From Promethearchaeota archaeon (GTDB taxonomy: Archaea; Asgardarchaeota; Lokiarchaeia; Sigyniarchaeales; SOKP01), in contig JAEOTR010000035.1 of the NCBI GenBank assembly GCA_016839705.1, forward strand, positions 44,658-108,657: a DNA stretch of 64,000 bases, in the 5' to 3' direction. Each line of letters opens with the position of its first letter. The stretch's first letter is position 1. Both the position numbers and the translations under genes were made by a program. Of this stretch, positions 46,318-58,091 are shown piece after piece. The notes under the pieces are model-generated. The model was not told the DNA's origin and searched no databases. It saw only the letters and a program-made list of their open reading frames with translations.

Positions 46318-46946
46318 GTGATCGACTCCGAGGAAACAGCATTAGTAAATATGATTTGTCCTTACTGTAAAGAGAGTTTCAGAAAGCAAGTTGACTATCA
46401 AAAAAAGACTGGATTATTTATAATCTTAATAAAAAACCACCCTAATGGCGATGAATGTCCTCCATTTATTGCTTTTATTGATAATAATGGAAGACATCGA
46501 GGATCTCAAAAAATTGATAATGTAGATGAAGAAGAGACTATGAACGGACAATTTCTAGAAAACGCTCGAAGTACTATAAATGAGCTAGAAGATACATTAC
46601 GATTTTATCATTTAAAAGTACCTAGACGAGGGGAAGAGGATTTGATCACAAGGTGGCAAGTGTGAAAGATCGAACATTTATGAGTTCCAAATTCTATAAA
46701 AGATTAATTGATTTTTTAAGTGAGAATGAGAATGAAAACTCCTTCGGAATGATTACTTATGAAGGGGATAAAGAAATAGAAAGCGGTCTTCTTATATACG
46801 GGAAATATCTAGGGATGATATTTACAATGTTTTCGAAAGACCAAAAAGCAGTTTAGAATAAAACCTTAGATGAAGTAAAGGGATACTCTAATCTTACAGT
46901 TGAAAAGTTGTTAGATTTATATGATCTAATGGACTTCTTTTTTTAA
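46318..46946 (+). pseudogene. Disrupted hypothetical gene (frameshift at ~46630 plus in-frame TAG at 46854)
   Basis: Joins as ...VPRRG/GRGFDHKVASVKDR...KAV*NKTLDEVKGYSNLTVEKLLDLYDLMDFFF*. Confidence 0.7.
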
Positions 46947-48030: not shown

Positions 48031-48594
48031 AATTATTCACATCATTTTTCTTTTTTATGAAAACCAATCCAAGATCCAGTCTAAATTCACCATATTTCAT
48101 ACAATCACAAAATAACCCACAAATTTCGGATTGTTAATTTAAATTATTAATTGGATCGGTAAATAAAATCAAGCAAATTCAAGTATTTAAATATTACCTT
48201 TTCACACGCTGTTCTTTTCAGAATATTTCGACAGTGGGTTTCAAAAAAGCAAAACTTTATAAATTATGCCTTCTTTACCACAATTAAGGTTAAAATCTTT
48301 TAATTTTCACCCATCCAATACATATTATTCTTTCATATTTAAAGATTGTTACATTCAACTCAACTTCTTACTATATACTATTTTTAACTAAACTAGAGTC
48401 AAATCATAGTTTGTTTACTCTTTTAATTTTATTTTTATTCACCTCCCTCGGTCCCTGTAGAATAACATTTCCTTTAAAAGAACAAACCTTTTTGAAAAAA
48501 GTAATGATCTTACTAAATTATTGAAGAATTGCATGTATTTCAGAAAATTGTCGGTGTATCTTTGCTTTATTGTAAAGAATCGTTACTTCATACA

Positions 48595-49341
48595 ATGACG
48601 TTTGATTCCGGATTTAAGGTACATGAACGAAACAATCATTCTCACCTCATTTCAAGTGGAGATAAGACTCTCGATGAGTTGCTTTCTGGGGGATTTCACC
48701 AAGATTTAGTGTATTTACTCTATGGAGATAAGAAGCTAACAACCAACATCTTGCTAACAACTTCCGTTATTGTTCAAAAAGCGTTTGACAATGGAGGGCT
48801 TGGAGAAGGTATTAGAGTTGCCTTCATCGATGGAAACAATCGTTTTAATCCTTACAACGTAAGCAAATTTGCAGTTACTAAAAACTTGTCCCCCAAAACG
48901 GTGTTAGAAAACATCCTTATTTCACGAGCGTTTACTTTTGACCAAATAATTGAGATTCTGGAAAATAAACTTTCCATGCTTGAAGATGTGAAGGTTGTAC
49001 TTATCTCTGGGATTACAACAATGCTCGAGAGCTATGAAAAGCAAACTTTCGAAGAATTACTACGGGCGATAGACGGAATTAAACAGATGCTCTGGAAAAC
49101 AAAACCACTCATTATAATAACGGCGCCGATACATGAACATTCTCTTTTTAGACCAAAAGGGGGAAAAATTCTTTCTCATTTTGGGAGTGTACTGGTGATG
49201 ATAAAAGATGATGAGCGGTATGTGGAATACACCCTCATTCAACACCCCTACTTACCTGAAAGTCGGTTGCTGAAATGGAAGCCCCGTACATCTAAGAAAA
49301 AGGTTCCTTTAAAAAATGCTACACTAGATTGCTGGTTTTAG
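48595..49341 (+). CDS. Degenerate RadA/Rad51-like protein (PolB2-associated type)
   Basis: SSGDKTLDELLSGG, IDGNNRFNP, LENILISRAFTFDQ; Walker A eroded to YGDKKLTT; C-terminal NATLDCWF. Confidence 0.82.
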   Translation: MTFDSGFKVHERNNHSHLISSGDKTLDELLSGGFHQDLVYLLYGDKKLTTNILLTTSVIVQKAFDNGGLGEGIRVAFIDGNNRFNPYNVSKFAVTKNLSPKTVLENILISRAFTFDQIIEILENKLSMLEDVKVVLISGITTMLESYEKQTFEELLRAIDGIKQMLWKTKPLIIITAPIHEHSLFRPKGGKILSHFGSVLVMIKDDERYVEYTLIQHPYLPESRLLKWKPRTSKKKVPLKNATLDCWF

Positions 49342-49460
49342 ATTGATTACCAAAAGGCTTTTTCAAATTTATTTATAGTATCCTGCAAGTCATATTTATG
49401 CAATTTTACGTTTAAAAAACAATTGGTTTTAAAAAAATAGATGTTCAATTCTTAATAATT

Positions 49461-52049
49461 TCACTCTAGAATATCAAATTTGTAAAATAAATAATAAACA
49501 AATTTATAAATTCGAAAAAGTTTCTTAGATAACTTACTCACAATTGTATTAAAAGACGCAATTGAATCGGTTTCTTTTGAGTGTAAAGAATTTTCAAAAT
49601 CTGGATAAGGTAAATTTCCCGTCATTTTAGGAGGACGACCGAGACTTTTCACCTTGTTCCAATTGCTATTTAGCTCTCTTGTCGCCAACCATGTTCTATC
49701 GGTAGTAATATTAAGTGCTTCTTTTGAAGATAATTCGATTTCACCATAAATATTGATAGGTCCAATGCCACCTATGAAATCAACATTCTCAATAGTAATA
49801 GTATTTTCTCCTTGGTGAAGATATTCAGCTATATCGAAAATTTGAATGTTATTTTCTAATATATTAAAGTTAAGTGATTGTCGAGTTATCAAATGCCCTA
49901 CGTAATTGCTATTAATGTTTAGTTTAGTGAAAGTACCACCTAAGATTTGTAAAGATGCTTTATCTATTTTGTCCTCAATTCGCATGACTTTTCTATAAAA
50001 TGTAGTATGAACTTGATGGAGTTTTTTAGAGTTTAAATATATCAGTTCACTAGGAATGTTAGGGTCTTTCCATTTAAGATTGCTATTTATTGCTTTAATT
50101 CTTTCATCATAAAATTTGAGTAACCATAAATATTTTTCTTTGATAGAGTTGAAACCTTCCACTTTTGCACAGCTTGACCATAAAAATTCATAATCATCGA
50201 TTAGGGCACTTAACTCACTTTTTAAATCATTTATTTCTCTTATTTTCATGTTCTTTAGCATTTCGTTTTTTGGAGAGAATTTAACTAGAAACTTGGAATT
50301 TCTTCTTTTTTTGCAATAGAATTTAATATGATTTGCTACAAAAGCAAGATTTCTTATGTTAATTTTATTTTTAGAGACAGCTTTTTCCAACTTTTCACAA
50401 TTGCTTATGATTGCATCCATCTCAGCAATAATTTTCTCATATCCCTTTACTTTTAAGTTTTTACGATACCTTTTCGTATTTTTGGCATAAGGATGAGAAA
50501 AGAAATGATTATAATATGATCTAGGCCGAGTATGTAAAAGATTTTTCTCTTGAATTCTACGAAAATTGCTAAATATGTGTAATAATGTGGGATTTTGGAT
50601 ACCAAAGAAATGAAGACACAAACCTTTCCAGAAAGATAATAAATTAAGATCTTTTAATGGGTCCCATCCAACATAAGCAGAAAAAATGAACCCATAAAAT
50701 CGATTCTCTCGAATTTCTTTATTCCTATAGTCACCCCAACTTGAAGTAATTTCACCTAAAGCTCCCTTTTCATAACCGAGTTTTACTAAATTTGTGATAT
50801 TTTTTTCATATCTACTAATAGTAGGAAAAATGCGATTATAATCTATTATAGAAGGGCTGACGATAACAGGTAAACCTTTTTCTCTTAATTTTAATAAAAT
50901 TGGATGATCTTTCTGAATAGTATAGTTCCAGTACATTATTATAATGTCTTTCGGTAAGTTCTCAATGATATCGTCATATTTGGAGAGGATGTCATGATAA
51001 ATAATTATCTTTTTGTAACCATATTTTTTAGCAATATCGTAAATTTTCTTATAATGGTTGAGATACGCCTTATTTATACTGATAGTATCAACGTATTCTT
51101 TTGAAGCAACCTTTCCTACATCCCAACTTTCATCTGCCCCTATATGAAAATATTCTGAATGGAAAACTTCACTTAATTCACTAATCATTTCATCTAATAA
51201 TTCATATACGTCTTCATTTGCAATATTTAGGCTATTAGAACCCGGAAATTCTCCATATTCCCAATATTTTGGATTAGATAAAATATTTTCCCAATGTCCA
51301 ATTGTTTGGAAAATGGGAATCAGTTCTACAAAATGTTTCCTCGCATAGTCTTGTAGTTCAATTATCTCTTCTTTTGAATATGAACCCCGATCTTTCCCAA
51401 TTTCCGGATGGTTCGTAAATTTAAACATATCTTGCATGTAGACTAGATAATATTGATTAACTTTATAGTGACTCAATTCTTTTATGAATTTTTTTAAATT
51501 ATCAATTGTAGGTGCTTGTCCTCTTGATATATCGTCTGAAACACCCCTGATTGTTAAAAGAGGAGAATCCATTATTCTTAGTTCATTTAATGATAATTTA
51601 TCTTGACTTGAGTTTATTATTTGGATTAAAGTTTGAATTCCATAATATATACCTTGAGGAGAAGATGCCCCTATAAAGAGGTTAGATTCTGTCGAGACCA
51701 GAATATATCCTTGACTATTAAAATTTCGTTCATTTACAAGTTGCGTAATATAATTCTCTGGAAAAAAGCCTTTTTGTTGCTCTAAAACTAGTTCTAAATT
51801 CTTATTCCTATAATTAGAGTCAACCTGTTGAACCTCTAATCTTTTGTTTAAGCCAAAAATTGCTAATTCATCTTGGAATTGGTCAATAATGAACCAATCT
51901 TCATTTTTTAAGTCAGTAACTATGCTAGTATGCTCTGTAATTCTTAATTTTTGAGCACTTTCTACTTTAATATAACGAGGTGGAGGGATTAAGAACAACT
52001 CTTCTTTATTCATTTCGACCTTAACTAAATTTTCCAGAAAAAGAAACAT
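49461..52049 (-). CDS. Glycoside hydrolase family 20 (beta-N-acetylhexosaminidase)
   Basis: [27 protein letters not shown] catalytic motif. Confidence 0.9.
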
Positions 52050-52159
52050 AATATAAATTAAATAAAAGGATACAAAAAAACTTAGCTAAATTTTCCCCAC
52101 ATTCCAAAATAAAATAAGAATTTACGAATGATTTTTTTATAGTTAGTAGAGGGCTTCTC

Positions 52160-52543
52160 TTAAGTCTTTTCAAGAGTAAGAGGATCGCCACCTCGCTTGA
52201 CTTTCTTTCCCTTGTAATAGAGGGTCGACATTTCTTCGCATATTTTATTCCATTCTTCTAATCCGAGCTTTTCTATCATTATCAAATTATACACTTTTGA
52301 ATTATGGGGAGTAAACATTTCAAAGTGAACAATTGGTTGGAGCATTTCACAGGGAAAATCATCACATTCATAACAGAATTCGTGTCCTTTATTGGTAACG
52401 CATTCGTAAGTCTTACAAAGGGGACCATTCAAAACTTTTCCCTCTCGTTCCCTACACCCTTCACATCCAAGGCGTTCTGATGCTAAGCATCTTTTACAGT
52501 AAATTCCGCAAGGCGCGTGCCAATGCAATAATTCTTCTGACAT
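52160..52543 (-). CDS. DUF3795-like Cys-rich protein
   Basis: APCGIYCKRC...CEGCR...FCYECDDFPC. Confidence 0.82.
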   Translation of the reverse strand: MSEELLHWHAPCGIYCKRCLASERLGCEGCREREGKVLNGPLCKTYECVTNKGHEFCYECDDFPCEMLQPIVHFEMFTPHNSKVYNLIMIEKLGLEEWNKICEEMSTLYYKGKKVKRGGDPLTLEKT

Positions 52544-52877
52544 TTTACAAAACCAAAGAAAATAATTTAATTAGTTTAGATTGAACTCAGAAATAAAGTT
52601 TATGATTAATTTGTATCTGTTGTGCTAAATAACTTTACTGTATTATCATAGATCCTTTTTTCTTTTAATTATTCCTTTAAACACATTACCAAAGGTTTTT
52701 CAAATTTACCTTTGTGTCCTGCAAACTATCTTTAATCCAAAACCTTGAATTTTTTTATATCTTAATTGTTATGAACTACATCGGCTAAGAAAATTTGAGT
52801 TTGTATAAGCTTTTAAATAATATGATATAATTTTCAGTTATATCTAAAAAAAATAATTTCTATGGATGTGAAGAATA

Positions 52878-53414
52878 TTGGACATGAAAATATTTAAAAA
52901 GACATATAAATTTGTCTGTGATGAATGTGGGGCATTTGCACATACAAAAATGGAATATTGCGAAAGTTGTGGGGTACAGGCTTTAAGGAATGCAAAAAAT
53001 GAGGATTATGCGAGATTTGAAATGGAAAAAAAAAGGGATACTAAAGAACAGCAGATAATATTTGAAAAAGATAAAGAAACTAGGATAGTTGCTGAGAGAG
53101 CTGAGAAAGTATCTGAGAAAGCTAGGATGGTTGCTGAGAAAGCTGAAAAAAAAGCTGAGAAGCTATCTGAGAAGACAGGTAAGAAACCTGAGGATGTTGA
53201 GAAAATAGCTGAGAAAGCTAGGATGATTACTGAGAAAGCTGAGAGGACAACTAAGAAAGCTGAGAAGAAAGTTGAGAAGGAAGCTAAGAAAGCTAAAGAG
53301 AAAGAAGAGAAAGCTAAGAAGGGTGTTGAGAAAGCTAAGAAGGGTGTTGAGGAAGCTAAGAAAAGAGTCGAGAGAACTAAGGAGGCAGCTAAGACGAAAG
53401 CAGAGGAAACTTAG
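52878..53414 (+). CDS. Zinc-ribbon protein with long A/E/K-rich low-complexity helical tail
   Basis: CDECG...CESCG, then repeated gctgagaaa / AEK units. Confidence 0.7.
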   Translation: MDMKIFKKTYKFVCDECGAFAHTKMEYCESCGVQALRNAKNEDYARFEMEKKRDTKEQQIIFEKDKETRIVAERAEKVSEKARMVAEKAEKKAEKLSEKTGKKPEDVEKIAEKARMITEKAERTTKKAEKKVEKEAKKAKEKEEKAKKGVEKAKKGVEEAKKRVERTKEAAKTKAEET

Positions 53415-53489
53415 CTTTTTTGGTAGTATAATTTGATTGATATATGGAACAGAAAAGATAATAGTTTTTCCAAATATAAGGTTATTATT

Positions 53490-53759
53490 TTACCCTTTTT
53501 CGAAGACTATGCCAGTACCACCAGCAGGATATTTAAACTTAATTGCTCCTGCCTCACACACTTGAAAGCAAGAAGCACATTCTACACATTTTGACTTGTA
53601 ATCATCAATAATATAGACCTTCCCATCTTTTTTTCGCCATAAATTCATTATACAGATTATCAAACATCGGACACAATTATTACATTTATCATTATCTATT
53701 GATATGAAATCTCCAGTACCAGGGATTCGTTTAGTTAAATTTTCTATATCAATTTTCAT
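53490..53759 (-). CDS. FixX-like ferredoxin
   Basis: CNNCVRCLIIC; CVECASCFQVC; FKYPAGGTGI. Confidence 0.88.
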   Translation of the reverse strand: MKIDIENLTKRIPGTGDFISIDNDKCNNCVRCLIICIMNLWRKKDGKVYIIDDYKSKCVECASCFQVCEAGAIKFKYPAGGTGIVFEKG

Positions 53760-55165
53760 TTAACTTGACCACCTCTTCTGTTCTTTTTTTCTGGCAGCAT
53801 ATCTAGGAGTTTGGGTAATATCTTCATAATCTTTTTTGGATCCGTAATTTTATCTAGATCATCTTCAAAGATTTTCGCAATTAAAGGAAATATATATGTC
53901 ATTATAAAAGGAGTTGCTTTGGGCATGTATGATTTAACATGACTTAAGATTTGACGTACTCTTGTAGCATGAGGCTGAGACCAATCGAATATTCCCCCTA
54001 AAACTTCCATTATCATCGGTATAAACCAAGACATAGTTTCTTTAGGGCTAAATGGTAACGCTTTCCAAATATTCCATAGCTCTTTTCCAGCATTAAAGTC
54101 TTCTCCTAAGCTAGTTTTTTGCCATTGCTCATCAAATTTCTTAAGAGCTGTTTTTGATATATCTTCTGATTGAATAGCTTCTACTGCCACTTCAGCAGCA
54201 ATCTTACCCGTTATCATTGCAGGATATATACCTTCAGCCTCAAGAGGACATGGAAAACCACCTGCATCACCAATCAATATTACTCCATTAGTATGAGTAT
54301 TATAAGGATAATCTAACCAGGGTAATAAGTGAGCTTGTAGTTCACGTGTTTTGGCTTCAAGGATTCTTAGCAATCTTTGGTAATATTTCAAATTAATAAC
54401 TCGATTTAAATAATATAATGGATTTTTATCCCACCAATTCATCCAATTTCCTAATCCTTGATGAAAACCATCATTAAAGAATACTTGATATGAAGCTGGG
54501 AAATTTGAACCCCACCAAACTCCTAATGCCTCATCACCCATAATATCAGTGATCTTTTCAGAAGGCGCCTGAAAGTCATATTGTGGTACTAATGTAACCT
54601 GATGCTGGGCCCATCTATTTCTTAATCCAGATTTTTGTGCTACAGTGGATATCACGCCATCTGCACCAATCACAATTGGCGCTTTATATTTTTCACCTTT
54701 TTCATCAATAACACCACACACAACACCATCATTTTTCAATAGATCAACAATTAATGTTGAAGTTTTCAATTCCGCCCCAGCGTTAGTAGCAAACTCAGCA
54801 ATCCACGGATCGAACTCACTACGATATACATTCATAGTTATCCATGATTTAGCTGGTTCATATGAAACAGATTCAGTTGGTCGTGCCATAATATAACCCG
54901 CTACGACATCATCTTTATTTATGAAATAATTCCGCGCAGCTACCCCTGCTCTCATCGAAGGACATTTTTCAGGGGTTAAATCATTCATCATTTCAGGGAA
55001 ATCTCTAAACATACGAGGGCCTAATCCACATCCAGAAGAATTTTTCTAACCGGGTTTACGTCCACGCTCAAAAAAAATAGGATTTAATCCCTTTTCCGCA
55101 GCAGTCTTAGCTGCTAGAGCTCCTCCTGGCCCCGCACCAACTATTATAAGATCATAACTTTTCAT
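53756..55165 (-). pseudogene. FixC/GGR-like FAD oxidoreductase interrupted by an in-frame TAG at codon 40
   Basis: [15 protein letters not shown]...ERGRKPG*KNSSG continues in frame into the 418-aa ORF (IGADG, IGDAGG...EGI). Confidence 0.8.
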
Positions 55166-55409
55166 TTGAATTTCCTTTTCATAATTTCATTAAAAACTAG
55201 ATTGGTTACTAATGCATATTTTTAATTAATATTTATTATTTAGAAATTAGCTAAGATTAATAGCTTATAGCATTTCAAATGACCCTAAATTATTTGATGA
55301 ATATTCACCAGACCAATTACAAATAACAGCCCAGTCTTCTAAAAATCATAAAATTTCGATGCTATTTTTCTTTAAATTTCATTTTGAATTATTTTACTTG
55401 GTTTTTTAT

Positions 55410-55682
55410 ATGGGAAGAACGGTTCCTTCTTTTAGACCTGCATTAGAGCACGAAATTGAGAGCTGGAAAGACTTTAAAAGAGCACTTCGGGTGGAAGAAC
55501 AACAAATATTTAACAAATTAATGAACTATGCTCGAATACACGCCGATGCAGGTAGCATGAGCGCACGTCCAATGCTGTCAGAAGTATTATTCCTTTCTTT
55601 TGCAGTTGAACAAGAAAAAAAAATTGAGATGCTCGAAAAGAAAGTAAAAGAATTAGAAGAAATGATAAAAGGGAAAGATTAG
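55410..55682 (+). CDS. Small PolB2-associated helical protein (arCOG07300-like)
   Basis: MGRTVPSFR...W..FKRALR; ends 3 bp before polB2. Confidence 0.75.
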   Translation: MGRTVPSFRPALEHEIESWKDFKRALRVEEQQIFNKLMNYARIHADAGSMSARPMLSEVLFLSFAVEQEKKIEMLEKKVKELEEMIKGKD

Positions 55683-55685
55683 AGA

Positions 55686-58091
55686 TTGAACTTTCAAAAA
55701 CAATTTAACGGTTGGCTTTTTGATGTCTCCGCAAATAGCAATGGAGTGATTCTTTGGGTGAAAACCGCAAAAGAGCAAAAGATTGTAAAAATATTTGATG
55801 ACTTCTACCCCGAGTTTTTTGCTGTGCCAAAGAAGCGTATGGGTAAAGACTTTAAGCGGTTGGAGAACATTCTTCAGTCCCATCACGATGTAAAAGACGT
55901 GCGGATTTGCGATAAATATGTGAAGCTAGAAGATCATAAGAAGACAAAAATCTTTGGAGTCTCAGTGGTGAAACCTTCAGTATTTAAAAAGACAATTAAA
56001 GCAATTGATAAGATTGGTTTCTTTACTTTATATAATACCGATCTTCCAATCGCTCAAATGTATTTCTATATGAATGATCTCTTTCCCATGTCGTTGTGCC
56101 GCTTCGAGATCAAATTTGAAAAAAAGAGAAAAACTGGGGAGCAGTTCATGCAGTTAATGTCATTAGCTTTAAAAGATGATAATGAGGTACTGTTTTATGA
56201 TTTACCTCCAATAAAAGCTGTATGGCTGGATATCAAAATAAATCAACGAGGGTTAAGAACGTACTTTAATGACCCTCTGGAATACGTAGAAGTGAGTATT
56301 GTTGAAAAAGATCACACGTCTAACATCCCCAGGGCAGATGGTCAGAAAAAAAAAACGATTCTCATCGATGAGGCTGATGAAGCAGAAACCATCAAAGCAA
56401 TTAGCAAGGTCATTGAAAGATTGGATCCTGATATTATACTAACTCGTGGAGGAGATGAATTTGTATTTCCATATTTGGTTGCACGAGCATCAGTGAATCA
56501 CGTGTTACGAGATCTCTATCTTTCTCGGAATAAAACACCACTAAGAAATTGCATCTTTCACCTGTCAGGAAACTCAGATCATTATATGACTTATGGGATA
56601 ATAATGCGTCGCTCAAAAACACAGGTGTATCTTACTGGACGTTTTCATTTGGATACCACATCTTATGGGAGTTTACACTTTAGCGAGGGAAATATACCCG
56701 GAGTCATTGAAGTTGCAAGGATATCTCGAGTTCCTATGCAAAGATTATGTAGAATAACAATTGGAGGTGCGCTTCAGTCGATACAGTATTATAATGCGTA
56801 CAAGCTAGGTCACCTTATTCCACCTTTCAAGAAAAGTCCTGAAGGATTTAGAAGTGGCATGGATCTGATCACGAATGACCGAGGGGGTCACATATTCGAA
56901 CCGTTGATTGGTGTTTTTGATCAAGTTGTAGAACTAGACTTTTCTTCAATGTATCCCTCCCTAATGGCTAATTTTAACATATCTTCAGAAACTCTCAATT
57001 GCAAATGTTGTAAAGATGACGGCACCGGTGTAAAAGTACCGGGCTTAGATTTCCATATATGTTCGAAAAGAGAAGGGATAATCTCAAAATCTATTAGCTT
57101 ACCATTACGGAAGAGATTGGAATGTAAGGAATATAACAGGCACAATGATGATTTGCGATATAAATTCGTTGATATTGCTCTAAAATGGGTACTTGTAGTG
57201 AGTTTTGGATACTTAGGCTTTAGAAACGCTCGATTTGGTAAGATTGAGGCACATCAAACAGTTTGTGCGTTTGCTCGTGAATTCCTTATGCGATCTGCCG
57301 AAATTGCCACAAAGTATGGATGCAGAGTCGTCCACGGAATTGTTGATTCAATGTGGCTCCAAGACACCAAAGGAAGAACTCCAGAAGAATTTGAAAGACT
57401 GACAAAAGAAATTGCAGACGAAATAACAAAAACTGTTGGCGTGCCTATGAGCTGGGACGGACGTTTCAATACCATCGTTTTCCTACCCTCTCGAGCAGAA
57501 CCTGACGTACCCGCACTCAGTCATTATTGGGGTATAAAATCTGACGGCGAGGTTAAGGTAAGAGGTATCGAAGTAAGACGTAGAGATATACCCAAAATCG
57601 TAAAAGATGCTCAGTATGCATTTATTGATACATTCCAAGGAGCAGAGACAGTCGAAGAATTCAAAAAGAGAATTCCCGATGCAAAGAAAAAGCTCTATGA
57701 ATATGTAGAAAGAATATATTCCGGGAACGTATCAAGAGATGAGCTTACAATTCGTCAGAAAATCTCTCGAAGACCCTCTCAATATAAAGTTAATAGTTAC
57801 CAAGCGGTTGCTGCTCGACAATTAGAACGATCAGGTGTTATTGCTTCGGCAGGAAAAAACGTGAGATATATTATTCTTAATGCAGAAGCGGATCCAGATT
57901 TTCCTGAAAAAAAAGTCATTCTTTCAGACTTATATGATGACAATAAACACGAATATGATAGAAAGAAGTATGTTGAATTGCTGAAAAGAGCTTTTGAAAA
58001 CATCTTTCCTTTTGAATTTGAGCTTGATGATTTACTGAAGCCAGATTATAATAAGAAGTCTCTTCAGAAAGATCTGTCATGTTTCATTTAA
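55686..58091 (+). CDS. polB2: Family B DNA polymerase, PolB2/Dpo2 group
   Basis: LDFSSMYPS motif A, LKWVLVVSFGYLG motif B, HGIVDS in place of YGDTDS, RGIEVRRRD; C-terminal QKDLSCF. Confidence 0.9.
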   Translation: MNFQKQFNGWLFDVSANSNGVILWVKTAKEQKIVKIFDDFYPEFFAVPKKRMGKDFKRLENILQSHHDVKDVRICDKYVKLEDHKKTKIFGVSVVKPSVFKKTIKAIDKIGFFTLYNTDLPIAQMYFYMNDLFPMSLCRFEIKFEKKRKTGEQFMQLMSLALKDDNEVLFYDLPPIKAVWLDIKINQRGLRTYFNDPLEYVEVSIVEKDHTSNIPRADGQKKKTILIDEADEAETIKAISKVIERLDPDIILTRGGDEFVFPYLVARASVNHVLRDLYLSRNKTPLRNCIFHLSGNSDHYMTYGIIMRRSKTQVYLTGRFHLDTTSYGSLHFSEGNIPGVIEVARISRVPMQRLCRITIGGALQSIQYYNAYKLGHLIPPFKKSPEGFRSGMDLITNDRGGHIFEPLIGVFDQVVELDFSSMYPSLMANFNISSETLNCKCCKDDGTGVKVPGLDFHICSKREGIISKSISLPLRKRLECKEYNRHNDDLRYKFVDIALKWVLVVSFGYLGFRNARFGKIEAHQTVCAFAREFLMRSAEIATKYGCRVVHGIVDSMWLQDTKGRTPEEFERLTKEIADEITKTVGVPMSWDGRFNTIVFLPSRAEPDVPALSHYWGIKSDGEVKVRGIEVRRRDIPKIVKDAQYAFIDTFQGAETVEEFKKRIPDAKKKLYEYVERIYSGNVSRDELTIRQKISRRPSQYKVNSYQAVAARQLERSGVIASAGKNVRYIILNAEADPDFPEKKVILSDLYDDNKHEYDRKKYVELLKRAFENIFPFEFELDDLLKPDYNKKSLQKDLSCFI

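Follow-up and report, generated by a model that had tools for sequence, protein, structure and literature searches.

The window analysed here is a 64,000-nucleotide (nt) stretch of a Promethearchaeota archaeon genome (GCA_016839705.1, contig JAEOTR010000035.1, positions 44,658-108,657 of the forward strand), and its subject is a three-gene module encoding the family B DNA polymerase PolB2, the small protein PPB2 (arCOG07300) and iRadA, an inactive RadA-like protein. By its sequence the locus is a member of a published family: the linkage of PolB2, arCOG07300 and an inactive RadA was described by Makarova et al. 2014 (PMC4104785), and Timinskas, Timinskas & Venclovas 2025 renamed the module PolB2-PPB2-iRadA and modelled a PolB2:iRadA:PPB2x3 'mutasome' (PMC11791011), which is found in archaea and some bacteria (PMC4104785, PMC11791011). 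Our reading, to which we give a probability of roughly 85%, is that a Loki-type Asgard archaeon has its PolB2 translesion mutasome encoded here, with tails of the PCNA-interacting protein (PIP) type on both large subunits and with its genes split into two units that are probably co-regulated. Three small points are new here, namely that the split extends through the genus, that the promoter element is duplicated and that two PIP tails are prevalent in the order; the rest is largely published.

The same-genus sample comprised 36 genomes, and other genera of the order and class were examined for synteny. Close relatives of the window genome were deposited as Promethearchaeota metagenome-assembled genomes, some of them labelled Hod- or Hermodarchaeota; single genomes are given below by G numbers. 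The main features, in window coordinates, are as follows.

48538-48580, plus strand: iRadA promoter block, TTTCAGAAAATTGTCGGTGTATCTTTGCTTTATTGTAAAGAAT.
48595-49341, plus strand: iRadA, a RadA/Rad51-fold protein of 248 aa, predicted to be ATPase-dead.
49315-49338, plus strand: PIP-like motif NATLDCWF at the C-terminus of iRadA, behind the basic linker KWKPRTSKKKVPLK.
49342-55343: variable insert between the iRadA and PPB2-PolB2 units.
55344-55379, plus strand: PPB2-PolB2 promoter block, AATCATAAAATTTCGATGCTATTTTTCTTTAAATTT.
55410-55682, plus strand: PPB2 (arCOG07300), a 90-aa helical protein with an N-terminal MGRT arm.
55686-58091, plus strand: PolB2, a family B polymerase of 801 aa with a TTG start.
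58065-58088, plus strand: putative PIP box QKDLSCFI at the C-terminus of PolB2, kept in 27/27 species of the genus.

The stop codon of iRadA and the start codon of PPB2 are separated by 6,068 bp, with both genes on the same strand and five genes between them. This agrees with the first-pass annotation of the stretch, made from the letters alone, which had placed the second unit about 6 kb downstream and had described a module split by inserted genes. Throughout the genus, iRadA lies upstream of PPB2-PolB2 and on the same strand wherever both are found on one contig, and the gap between them ranges from about 0.5 kb (G006, which has no open reading frame (ORF) of at least 60 aa in the gap) to about 8 kb (G024). 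The content of the gap is a mosaic across the genus, including DUF3795, a longin-domain gene with its unknown neighbour, a Zn-ribbon ORF, GH20 and an acyl-CoA synthetase. The split characterises the genus as a whole and is not an accident of recent date. No module was found in 8 of the 36 genus genomes, and most of these 8 are incomplete.

Outside the genus, iRadA lies 40-340 bp upstream of PPB2 in the majority of genera of the order and class; the genomes concerned, at least ten, include G039, G041, G042, G043, G049, G053 and G057-G060. PolB2 comes directly after PPB2 in some of these genomes (e.g. G042, G049 and G039); in others (G053, G060, G057 and G059) it is inverted, far away or located on a different contig. 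The linkage of PolB2, arCOG07300 and an inactive RadA-like gene that had been named as typical of archaea is borne out by the synteny of these Asgard genomes, with one dispersed genus that is discussed below.

The iRadA protein matches the Pfam Rad51 family (1.8e-16) and aligns to RadA structures (E ~1e-12) over the ATPase core only, the aligned span being residues 7-214 of the RadA ATPase-core construct, or 112-336 of full-length P. furiosus RadA. In this alignment the N-terminal helix-hairpin-helix domain of RadA is missing from iRadA, K-KLTT stands in place of the Walker A sequence GSGKT, and Ser/Gly in place of the Walker B Asp. The eroded Walker A that had been noticed at 48595-49341 is thus real, and GKT is missing from the P-loop region in 32/32 aligned iRadA homologues. 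Protein identity across 29 species of the genus is 77-93%.

A separate RadA paralogue, of the RadB or another type, with a role in recombination or replication restart and with PPB2-PolB2 working without it, would also suit a gene that sits 6 kb from PPB2-PolB2 behind five unrelated genes, most of them on the opposite strand, and the dispersal of the three genes over the chromosome in one genus fits the same idea. However, iRadA scores far under every cut-off of the NCBIfam RadA, Rad51, Dmc1 and RadB models, with 39.4 bits against a cut-off of 172.4 for the RadB model TIGR02237 and 29.9 bits against 278 for NF006861, and both Walker motifs are lost; identification as RadB was rejected on these grounds. 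Its orthologues adjoin PPB2 in most other genera, with PolB2 directly after in several, contrary to the lack of linkage to polB2 elsewhere that the first-pass annotation had listed as part of what would refute it. The missing N-terminal domain is also a property of published iRadA (PMC11791011). The window genome has a single iRadA gene, which is the only such gene besides radA, and in 25/29 species its promoter and that of PPB2 are homologous, as described below. We regard an independent role of the RadA-like gene as very improbable, and iRadA is treated here as the RadA-like partner of PolB2.

In the case of PPB2, the listed ORF spans 55359-55682, and the true start is the ATG at 55410, because 21/21 orthologues checked begin MGRT[VIL]xx[FY]R (MGRTVPSFRP here). 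The 17 codons upstream of this ATG overlap the conserved promoter block, and position 55359 lies inside it. In 19 aligned orthologues M1, G2, R3, T4 and R9 are invariant, with R3 and R9 as arm residues. In an AlphaFold2 model (mean predicted local distance difference test (pLDDT) score 85.6) residues 1-7 form a free arm, and the helices span 8-24 (with a kink at 18-19), 28-43 and 56-89; a Foldseek search of this model against the PDB returned no match with E <2. The arm and three helices agree with the published description of PPB2, which includes the MGRT arm (PMC11791011). The window genome has a single PPB2, and its stop codon lies 3 nt ahead of the PolB2 start, so the small helical ORF that had been described as abutting the polymerase stands in its fold and its spacing, but not in its listed start. 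Translation of PolB2 is probably coupled to that of PPB2.

PolB2 matches the Pfam families DNA_pol_B (5.5e-25) and exo1 (4.7e-09). Its motif C reads HGIVDS (nt 57333-57350), as had been noted at first sight, and aligns with YIDTDG of Deep Vent polymerase, so that DTD has become IVD. The residues concerned, H550-S555, are invariant in 17 Asgard PolB2 proteins, and replacement of the first Asp of DxD has been described for most PolB2 members (PMC11791011). Exo II reads GGDEFV where Deep Vent polymerase has NGDSFD, the catalytic Asp being gone ('FD' to 'FV'), and Exo I gave no alignment with Deep Vent polymerase; on this alignment the 3'-5' exonuclease site is decayed. The protein is 41.7% identical over 839 aa to the PolB2 of the relative G049, which agrees with the Lokiarchaeota protein MBD3351474.1 of the curated Timinskas 2025 set at every N-terminal and motif C-region string and at both motif positions that were checked. 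By comparison, it shares only 26% identity over 227 aa with the other family B polymerase of the window genome. Its placement in PolB2, and not with the replicative PolB1/PolB3, is by pairwise identity and motif strings.

The window genome has a single PolB2, and its other polymerases are another PolB, PolD DP2 and a Y-family polymerase. The other family B polymerase is encoded by a 1,333-aa open frame (G000:C55:42591-47783; L001/L003) in which the Pfam polymerase match falls into two stretches about 0.9 kb apart, which suggests that it is interrupted by an intein or a large insertion.

The losses in PolB2 could be taken as signs that the module is decaying, with the polymerase catalytically dead, the operon breaking up and the tails and promoter blocks left as relics. 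The loss of the first Asp of motif C and of exonuclease residues would fit this, as would the split or dispersed operon in several genera, the degenerate PPB2 promoter copy of the window and the genus genomes, most of them incomplete, from which the module is missing. However, Dpo2 of Sulfolobus islandicus has IID at the same place and is yet active and required for damage-induced mutagenesis (PMC8764526, PMC7390963, PMC11791011). Three intact open frames are kept in about 28 species at 77-96% protein identity, and constraint is visible in both the tails and the MGRT arm. A module in decay is, in our estimation, quite unlikely, and we infer instead that PolB2 is an active polymerase that lacks proofreading.

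Both large subunits carry a PIP-like tail. The C-terminus of iRadA reads KKKVPLKNATLDCWF, directly followed by the stop codon, and the ending NATLDCWF is as the first-pass annotation had it. The polymerase end had been given there as QKDLSCF; the motif is present, but the terminal Ile was left out, and the protein ends QKDLSCFI. The latter is a canonical PIP sequence; the iRadA tail has N for Q. Within the genus the iRadA tail follows the pattern N-x-[TM]-[LI]-D-x-[WF]-hydrophobic in 30/30 species, with N, D and W invariant among 29 tallied sequences. The PolB2 tail follows Q-[KRT]-D-[LMI]-x-C-[FY]-[ILF] in 27/27 complete sequences, one per species, with Q, D and C invariant and with conservative swaps among L/M/I and between F and Y. 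The tails are therefore conserved, which had been named as a point on which the earlier proposal could fail. In a class-wide MAFFT alignment, 32/32 iRadA ends share an L-[DEN]-x-[FYW] core, after which the next residue is mostly hydrophobic; the linkers that precede this core measure 0 to about 80 aa. PIP-like PolB2 tails were also seen outside the genus, in G042, G049, G048/50/52, G055, G039, G040, G053 and G047, and weaker ones in G045 and G037; no PIP-like PolB2 end was seen in G044, G056, G057, G059 or G060. The PolB2 tail is thus present in most genera of the order.

The background frequency of such ends was assessed in the window genome by counting ORFs of at least 150 aa whose 10 final residues include [QN]xx[LIM]xx[FYW]-hydrophobic. 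Only 17 of 2,316 (0.7%) had one, several of them likely true clamp partners such as an ORF of about 1,151 aa fitting PolD DP2, and two such tails in one module are unlikely to have arisen by chance. The state with two tails is the rule in the genus and common in the order, and is rare according to the published survey, in which clamp motifs occur in iRadA or PolB2 'but rarely in both' (PMC11791011).

There is a single PCNA gene per genome. The PCNA of the window genome (L004:1072-1875, minus strand, in G000:C88) ends in a strongly acidic C-terminal tail, EEEFGDEDDMDEF, which is kept in the genus, and the basic linker of iRadA (KWKPRTSKKK) might complement it. PCNA was modelled together with iRadA residues 209-248 in one job, using the alignments A1 and A2 made in this analysis. 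The runs shared at least 86% of their contacts with a partner pLDDT of at least 50, and gave a median ipSAE of 0.53 (0.44-0.64), compared with 0.00 for the best control; the mark used is reached by 58/80 solved complexes and 2/110 mismatched pairs, and scores of 0.60 or less came from no more than 7 of the 80 solved complexes, but from both mismatches. This lends weak support to docking of the iRadA tail on PCNA, and the pass may reflect likeness to solved structures, since PIP-PCNA complexes have already been solved. In the claim that both partners dock on PCNA, the conserved tails stand, with the model leaning in the same direction, and the docking itself keeps the rank of a prediction.

The C-terminal motifs could also serve as contacts within the complex (to iRadA, PolB2 or PPB2) or with some other partner, and not as PCNA anchors. 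The N at the canonical Q position of the iRadA tail and the low grade of the PCNA model would agree with this. On the other hand, archaeal PIP motifs classically have the form x-x-x-[LI]-D-x-[WFY]-hydrophobic and stand at the extreme C-terminus after a flexible, basic linker, the docking controls remained at 0.00, and the few ends of this kind in the genome include likely clamp clients. PDB 3A2F has been cited for the archaeal arrangement, and Lokiarchaeota operons are within the published data set, where PCNA:iRadA was modelled for another Lokiarchaeota pair; in the published Loki operon that is closest, of the G049 type, the tail of iRadA was not flagged by the PCNA profile of that survey (PMC11791011), a point for the alternative. 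We consider it unlikely that the motifs have a role other than clamp binding; both tails would anchor the complex to the homotrimeric PCNA.

The two units also carry homologous promoter blocks. The block upstream of iRadA is about 43 nt long, ends about 15 nt before the ATG and is nearly invariant DNA in 29 genus species. It contains TCAGAAAATT-N5-TGTAT as well as a TATA-like box that sits some 25-30 nt ahead of the ATG, a spacing from which the iRadA mRNA is probably leaderless. The block is taken as non-coding because the open frame in two relatives stops two codons before the ATG, and it is the best genomic match to the motif. A homologous block with the consensus AATCAGAAAATTTGTATTGTATTTTTGTTTTAATTT lies 64-85 nt before PPB2 in the genus. 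A core matrix of 16 positions, made from iRadA promoters alone and scanned over the 3.2-kb PPB2 locus of each of 29 species, had its best locus match at this distance from PPB2 in 25. In the window the PPB2 block is degenerate, with 13/16 core positions, and so is the copy of the nearest relative; co-regulation is accordingly less certain here than in most of the genus. A matrix derived from PPB2 promoters ranked 55344-55379 first in the window genome, and with full 36-nt single-class matrices the other promoter class was absent from the top 8 in that genome. Taken together, the two units are probably co-regulated through the shared element.

The element TTCAGAAA(A)TT was also observed upstream of iRadA in three families of the order (sites L131:1374-1383 and L143:1176-1185) and upstream of PPB2 in the genus, where N5-TGTAT and a TATA-like box then follow. 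In the high-GC genomes G039 and G043, which represent two genera of another family, TTCAGAAATT is unique upstream of iRadA, with about 0-0.01 chance matches expected. The element overlaps in part the TTTCRGWD portion of the Sulfolobus damage-response consensus, AATAGTTTCRGWDTACTCWS (PMC6061795), and this overlap is treated as a lead only.

Combining these observations with the published family, the following mechanism is proposed. By homology, PolB2 without proofreading would extend mismatched or lesion-paired primer ends. It would assemble with one iRadA plus a trimer of PPB2, whose MGRT arm would be inserted between PolB2 and iRadA, and the complex would be tethered to the PCNA ring through its C-terminal PIP-type tails. 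Because iRadA and PolB2 are both tailed, two subunits of PCNA could be held by the complex, or one anchor or the other could be used. An ancestral iRadA-PPB2-PolB2 operon would have given rise in this genus to two co-oriented units, iRadA alone and PPB2-PolB2, and the region between them would have repeatedly taken up or exchanged unrelated genes, here five genes in 6 kb. Each unit would keep its own copy of the homologous promoter block, which probably holds the units co-regulated. Complex formation, PCNA binding and the extender role are predictions, and damage induction of the module is probable on the same footing.

Several points count against this interpretation. All function attributed to the locus is transferred from Sulfolobus and from in-silico models, and the docking model gives the iRadA tail support of a weak grade. 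The published iRadA-binding beta-alpha motif and the conserved D(K/R) loop after it, which contacts the PPB2 arm, could not be placed confidently in PolB2 from sequence: ahead of the Exo II region the alignment has a variable loop of the form D-x-x-G/K (RADGQKK here), and the published 253-DK-254 cannot be equated with it by sequence alignment without a complex model. The iRadA-derived core matrix misses the PPB2 block in the window genome and in that of its nearest relative. A regulon scan with the promoter matrices gave no other strong or convincing site in the window genome, with one further match, at C17:36577, scoring 15.5; since the element has no further strong match in the genome, neither a regulon nor its regulator can be named. 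An apparent match at radA sits within the radA coding sequence and was rejected as chance. Finally, in genus g2 the three genes are fully dispersed, an extreme form of operon dissolution; this holds for the complete genome G044 as well as for two drafts, where they lie on separate contigs. The positions in G044:C1 are as follows.

3297764-3298402 (about 3.3 Mb): iRadA.
3003354-3004184 (about 3.0 Mb): PolB2.
4178575-4178829 (about 4.2 Mb): PPB2.

Because of this dispersal, physical linkage is not obligatory in the order. No promoter motif shared among the dispersed g2 genes was seen by eye. The g2 iRadA retains the dead P-loop and an LDxFF tail despite the dispersal.

The genes of the variable insert in the window are as follows.

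49461-52049, minus strand: GH20 hexosaminidase-like (Pfam).
52160-52543, minus strand: DUF3795 (Pfam), Cys-rich.
52878-53414, plus strand: Zn-ribbon/Lys-Glu-rich ORF.
53490-53759, minus strand: 2x[4Fe-4S] ferredoxin (Pfam).
53756-55166, minus strand: flavin adenine dinucleotide (FAD) oxidoreductase (Pfam), with an in-frame TAG at 55046-55048.

The FAD oxidoreductase, which has the Rossmann motif GAGPGG at its N-terminus, lies on the same contig 31-38 kb from iRadA in seven relatives checked and 185 kb away in G006. Given its location elsewhere in relatives, the gene has moved into the gap here, in keeping with inserted genes as the cause of the split. Its TAG codon corresponds to Glu in eight relatives (KPGEKNSSG); a pyrrolysine codon was rejected for this reason, leaving a GAG-to-TAG nonsense change or a sequencing error. 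Some species have GH20 in the gap, and others have it just downstream of PolB2. DUF3795 is the commonest gap gene, being present in 11 of 17 loci compared, the sole gap gene in two, and always on the opposite strand. The Zn-ribbon ORF, co-oriented with the module, has an N-terminal CxxC...CxxC followed by a long low-complexity tail rich in Lys, Glu and Ala; six other species of the genus have it in their gap as well. It matched no Pfam family, and there is nothing to connect it with the polymerase.

The flanks of the window locus encode a proteasome alpha subunit, a Ras-like GTPase, an alpha/beta hydrolase and an aldo-keto reductase, and those of relatives an acyl-CoA synthetase, Sir2 and a longin-domain protein. 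Among the flanking genes there was no Orc1/Cdc6, SRAP or DUF72 neighbour, the genes enriched near polB2 in the literature. At 46318-46856 on the plus strand, two overlapping frames (115 and 67 aa) correspond to one frame of about 211 aa in relatives (cluster 13), probably because of a frameshift or because the gene is a pseudogene.

Among known organisms, the Asgard archaea are those most closely related to eukaryotes. PolB2 mutasomes are an archaeal counterpart of bacterial SOS mutagenesis, and the extender role resembles that of eukaryotic Pol zeta. The locus does not represent a new machine; it is a clean and comparatively well-sampled case of a split operon, in about 30 species, with both large subunits tailed. 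Its promoter element is, to our knowledge, the first concrete handle on damage-responsive transcription in Lokiarchaeia-type Asgards. The value of the locus otherwise lies mainly in annotation and construct choice, namely the true PPB2 start, the PolB2 TTG start and the tail peptides. More speculatively, the mutasome may as a rule be a two-anchor clamp client in the order, with the iRadA and PolB2 tails on one PCNA subunit each and the third left free for a replicative or Y-family polymerase, and with co-expression kept, when the operon broke up, by duplication of an old, lineage-wide cis-element (TTCAGAAA(A)TT ... TATA). A regulator devoted to the damage response would read this element and might, as in Sulfolobus, be of the Orc1/Cdc6 type. 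We put this extension forward tentatively and hold it to be doubtful as a whole.

The first-pass annotation had proposed an Asgard analogue of ImuA-ImuB-DnaE2. As a comparison of architecture this is fair: like E. coli Pol V (UmuD'2C-RecA-ATP) and ImuA'-ImuB-DnaE2 of mycobacteria and proteobacteria, the module combines an error-tolerant polymerase with a RecA-fold subunit, a small accessory subunit and the predicted use of a sliding clamp. However, the polymerases of those systems belong to the Y and C families and are not homologous to the B family enzyme found here, and PPB2 is unrelated to either UmuD' or ImuB. The clamp motif of ImuABC sits on ImuB, whereas here it is on the RecA-fold subunit and the polymerase. 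The locus is more simply a member of the published PolB2 mutasome family, for which the parallel to Pol V was drawn and ImuABC was not mentioned (PMC11791011).

The experimental basis for an extender and mutagenesis role is Dpo2 of Sulfolobus, for which both activities have been shown (PMC7390963, PMC8764526). Dpo2 of S. islandicus and S. solfataricus is likewise of the PolB2 group, has Ile in place of the first Asp of motif C and lacks proofreading (PMC7390963, PMC8764526). Its host, however, is a distant crenarchaeon, and its operon is damage-induced via Orc1-2 and an ANTTTC element (PMC6061795), a regulator and an element not established for the window locus.

The closest comparison is with the PolB2 mutasome itself. 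The same three families occur in the same order, iRadA, PPB2 and PolB2. The polymerase has IVD for DTD and a decayed exonuclease, iRadA lacks the N-terminal domain and the Walker motifs, PPB2 has the MGRT arm and three helices, and clamp-binding motifs are found at the C-termini. In contrast to the published operons, whose genes are 'only rarely interspersed' (PMC11791011), iRadA forms a separate unit 6 kb upstream. Tails on both iRadA and PolB2, rare in that survey, are present here together, and the two units carry homologous promoter blocks of a kind not described there (PMC11791011).

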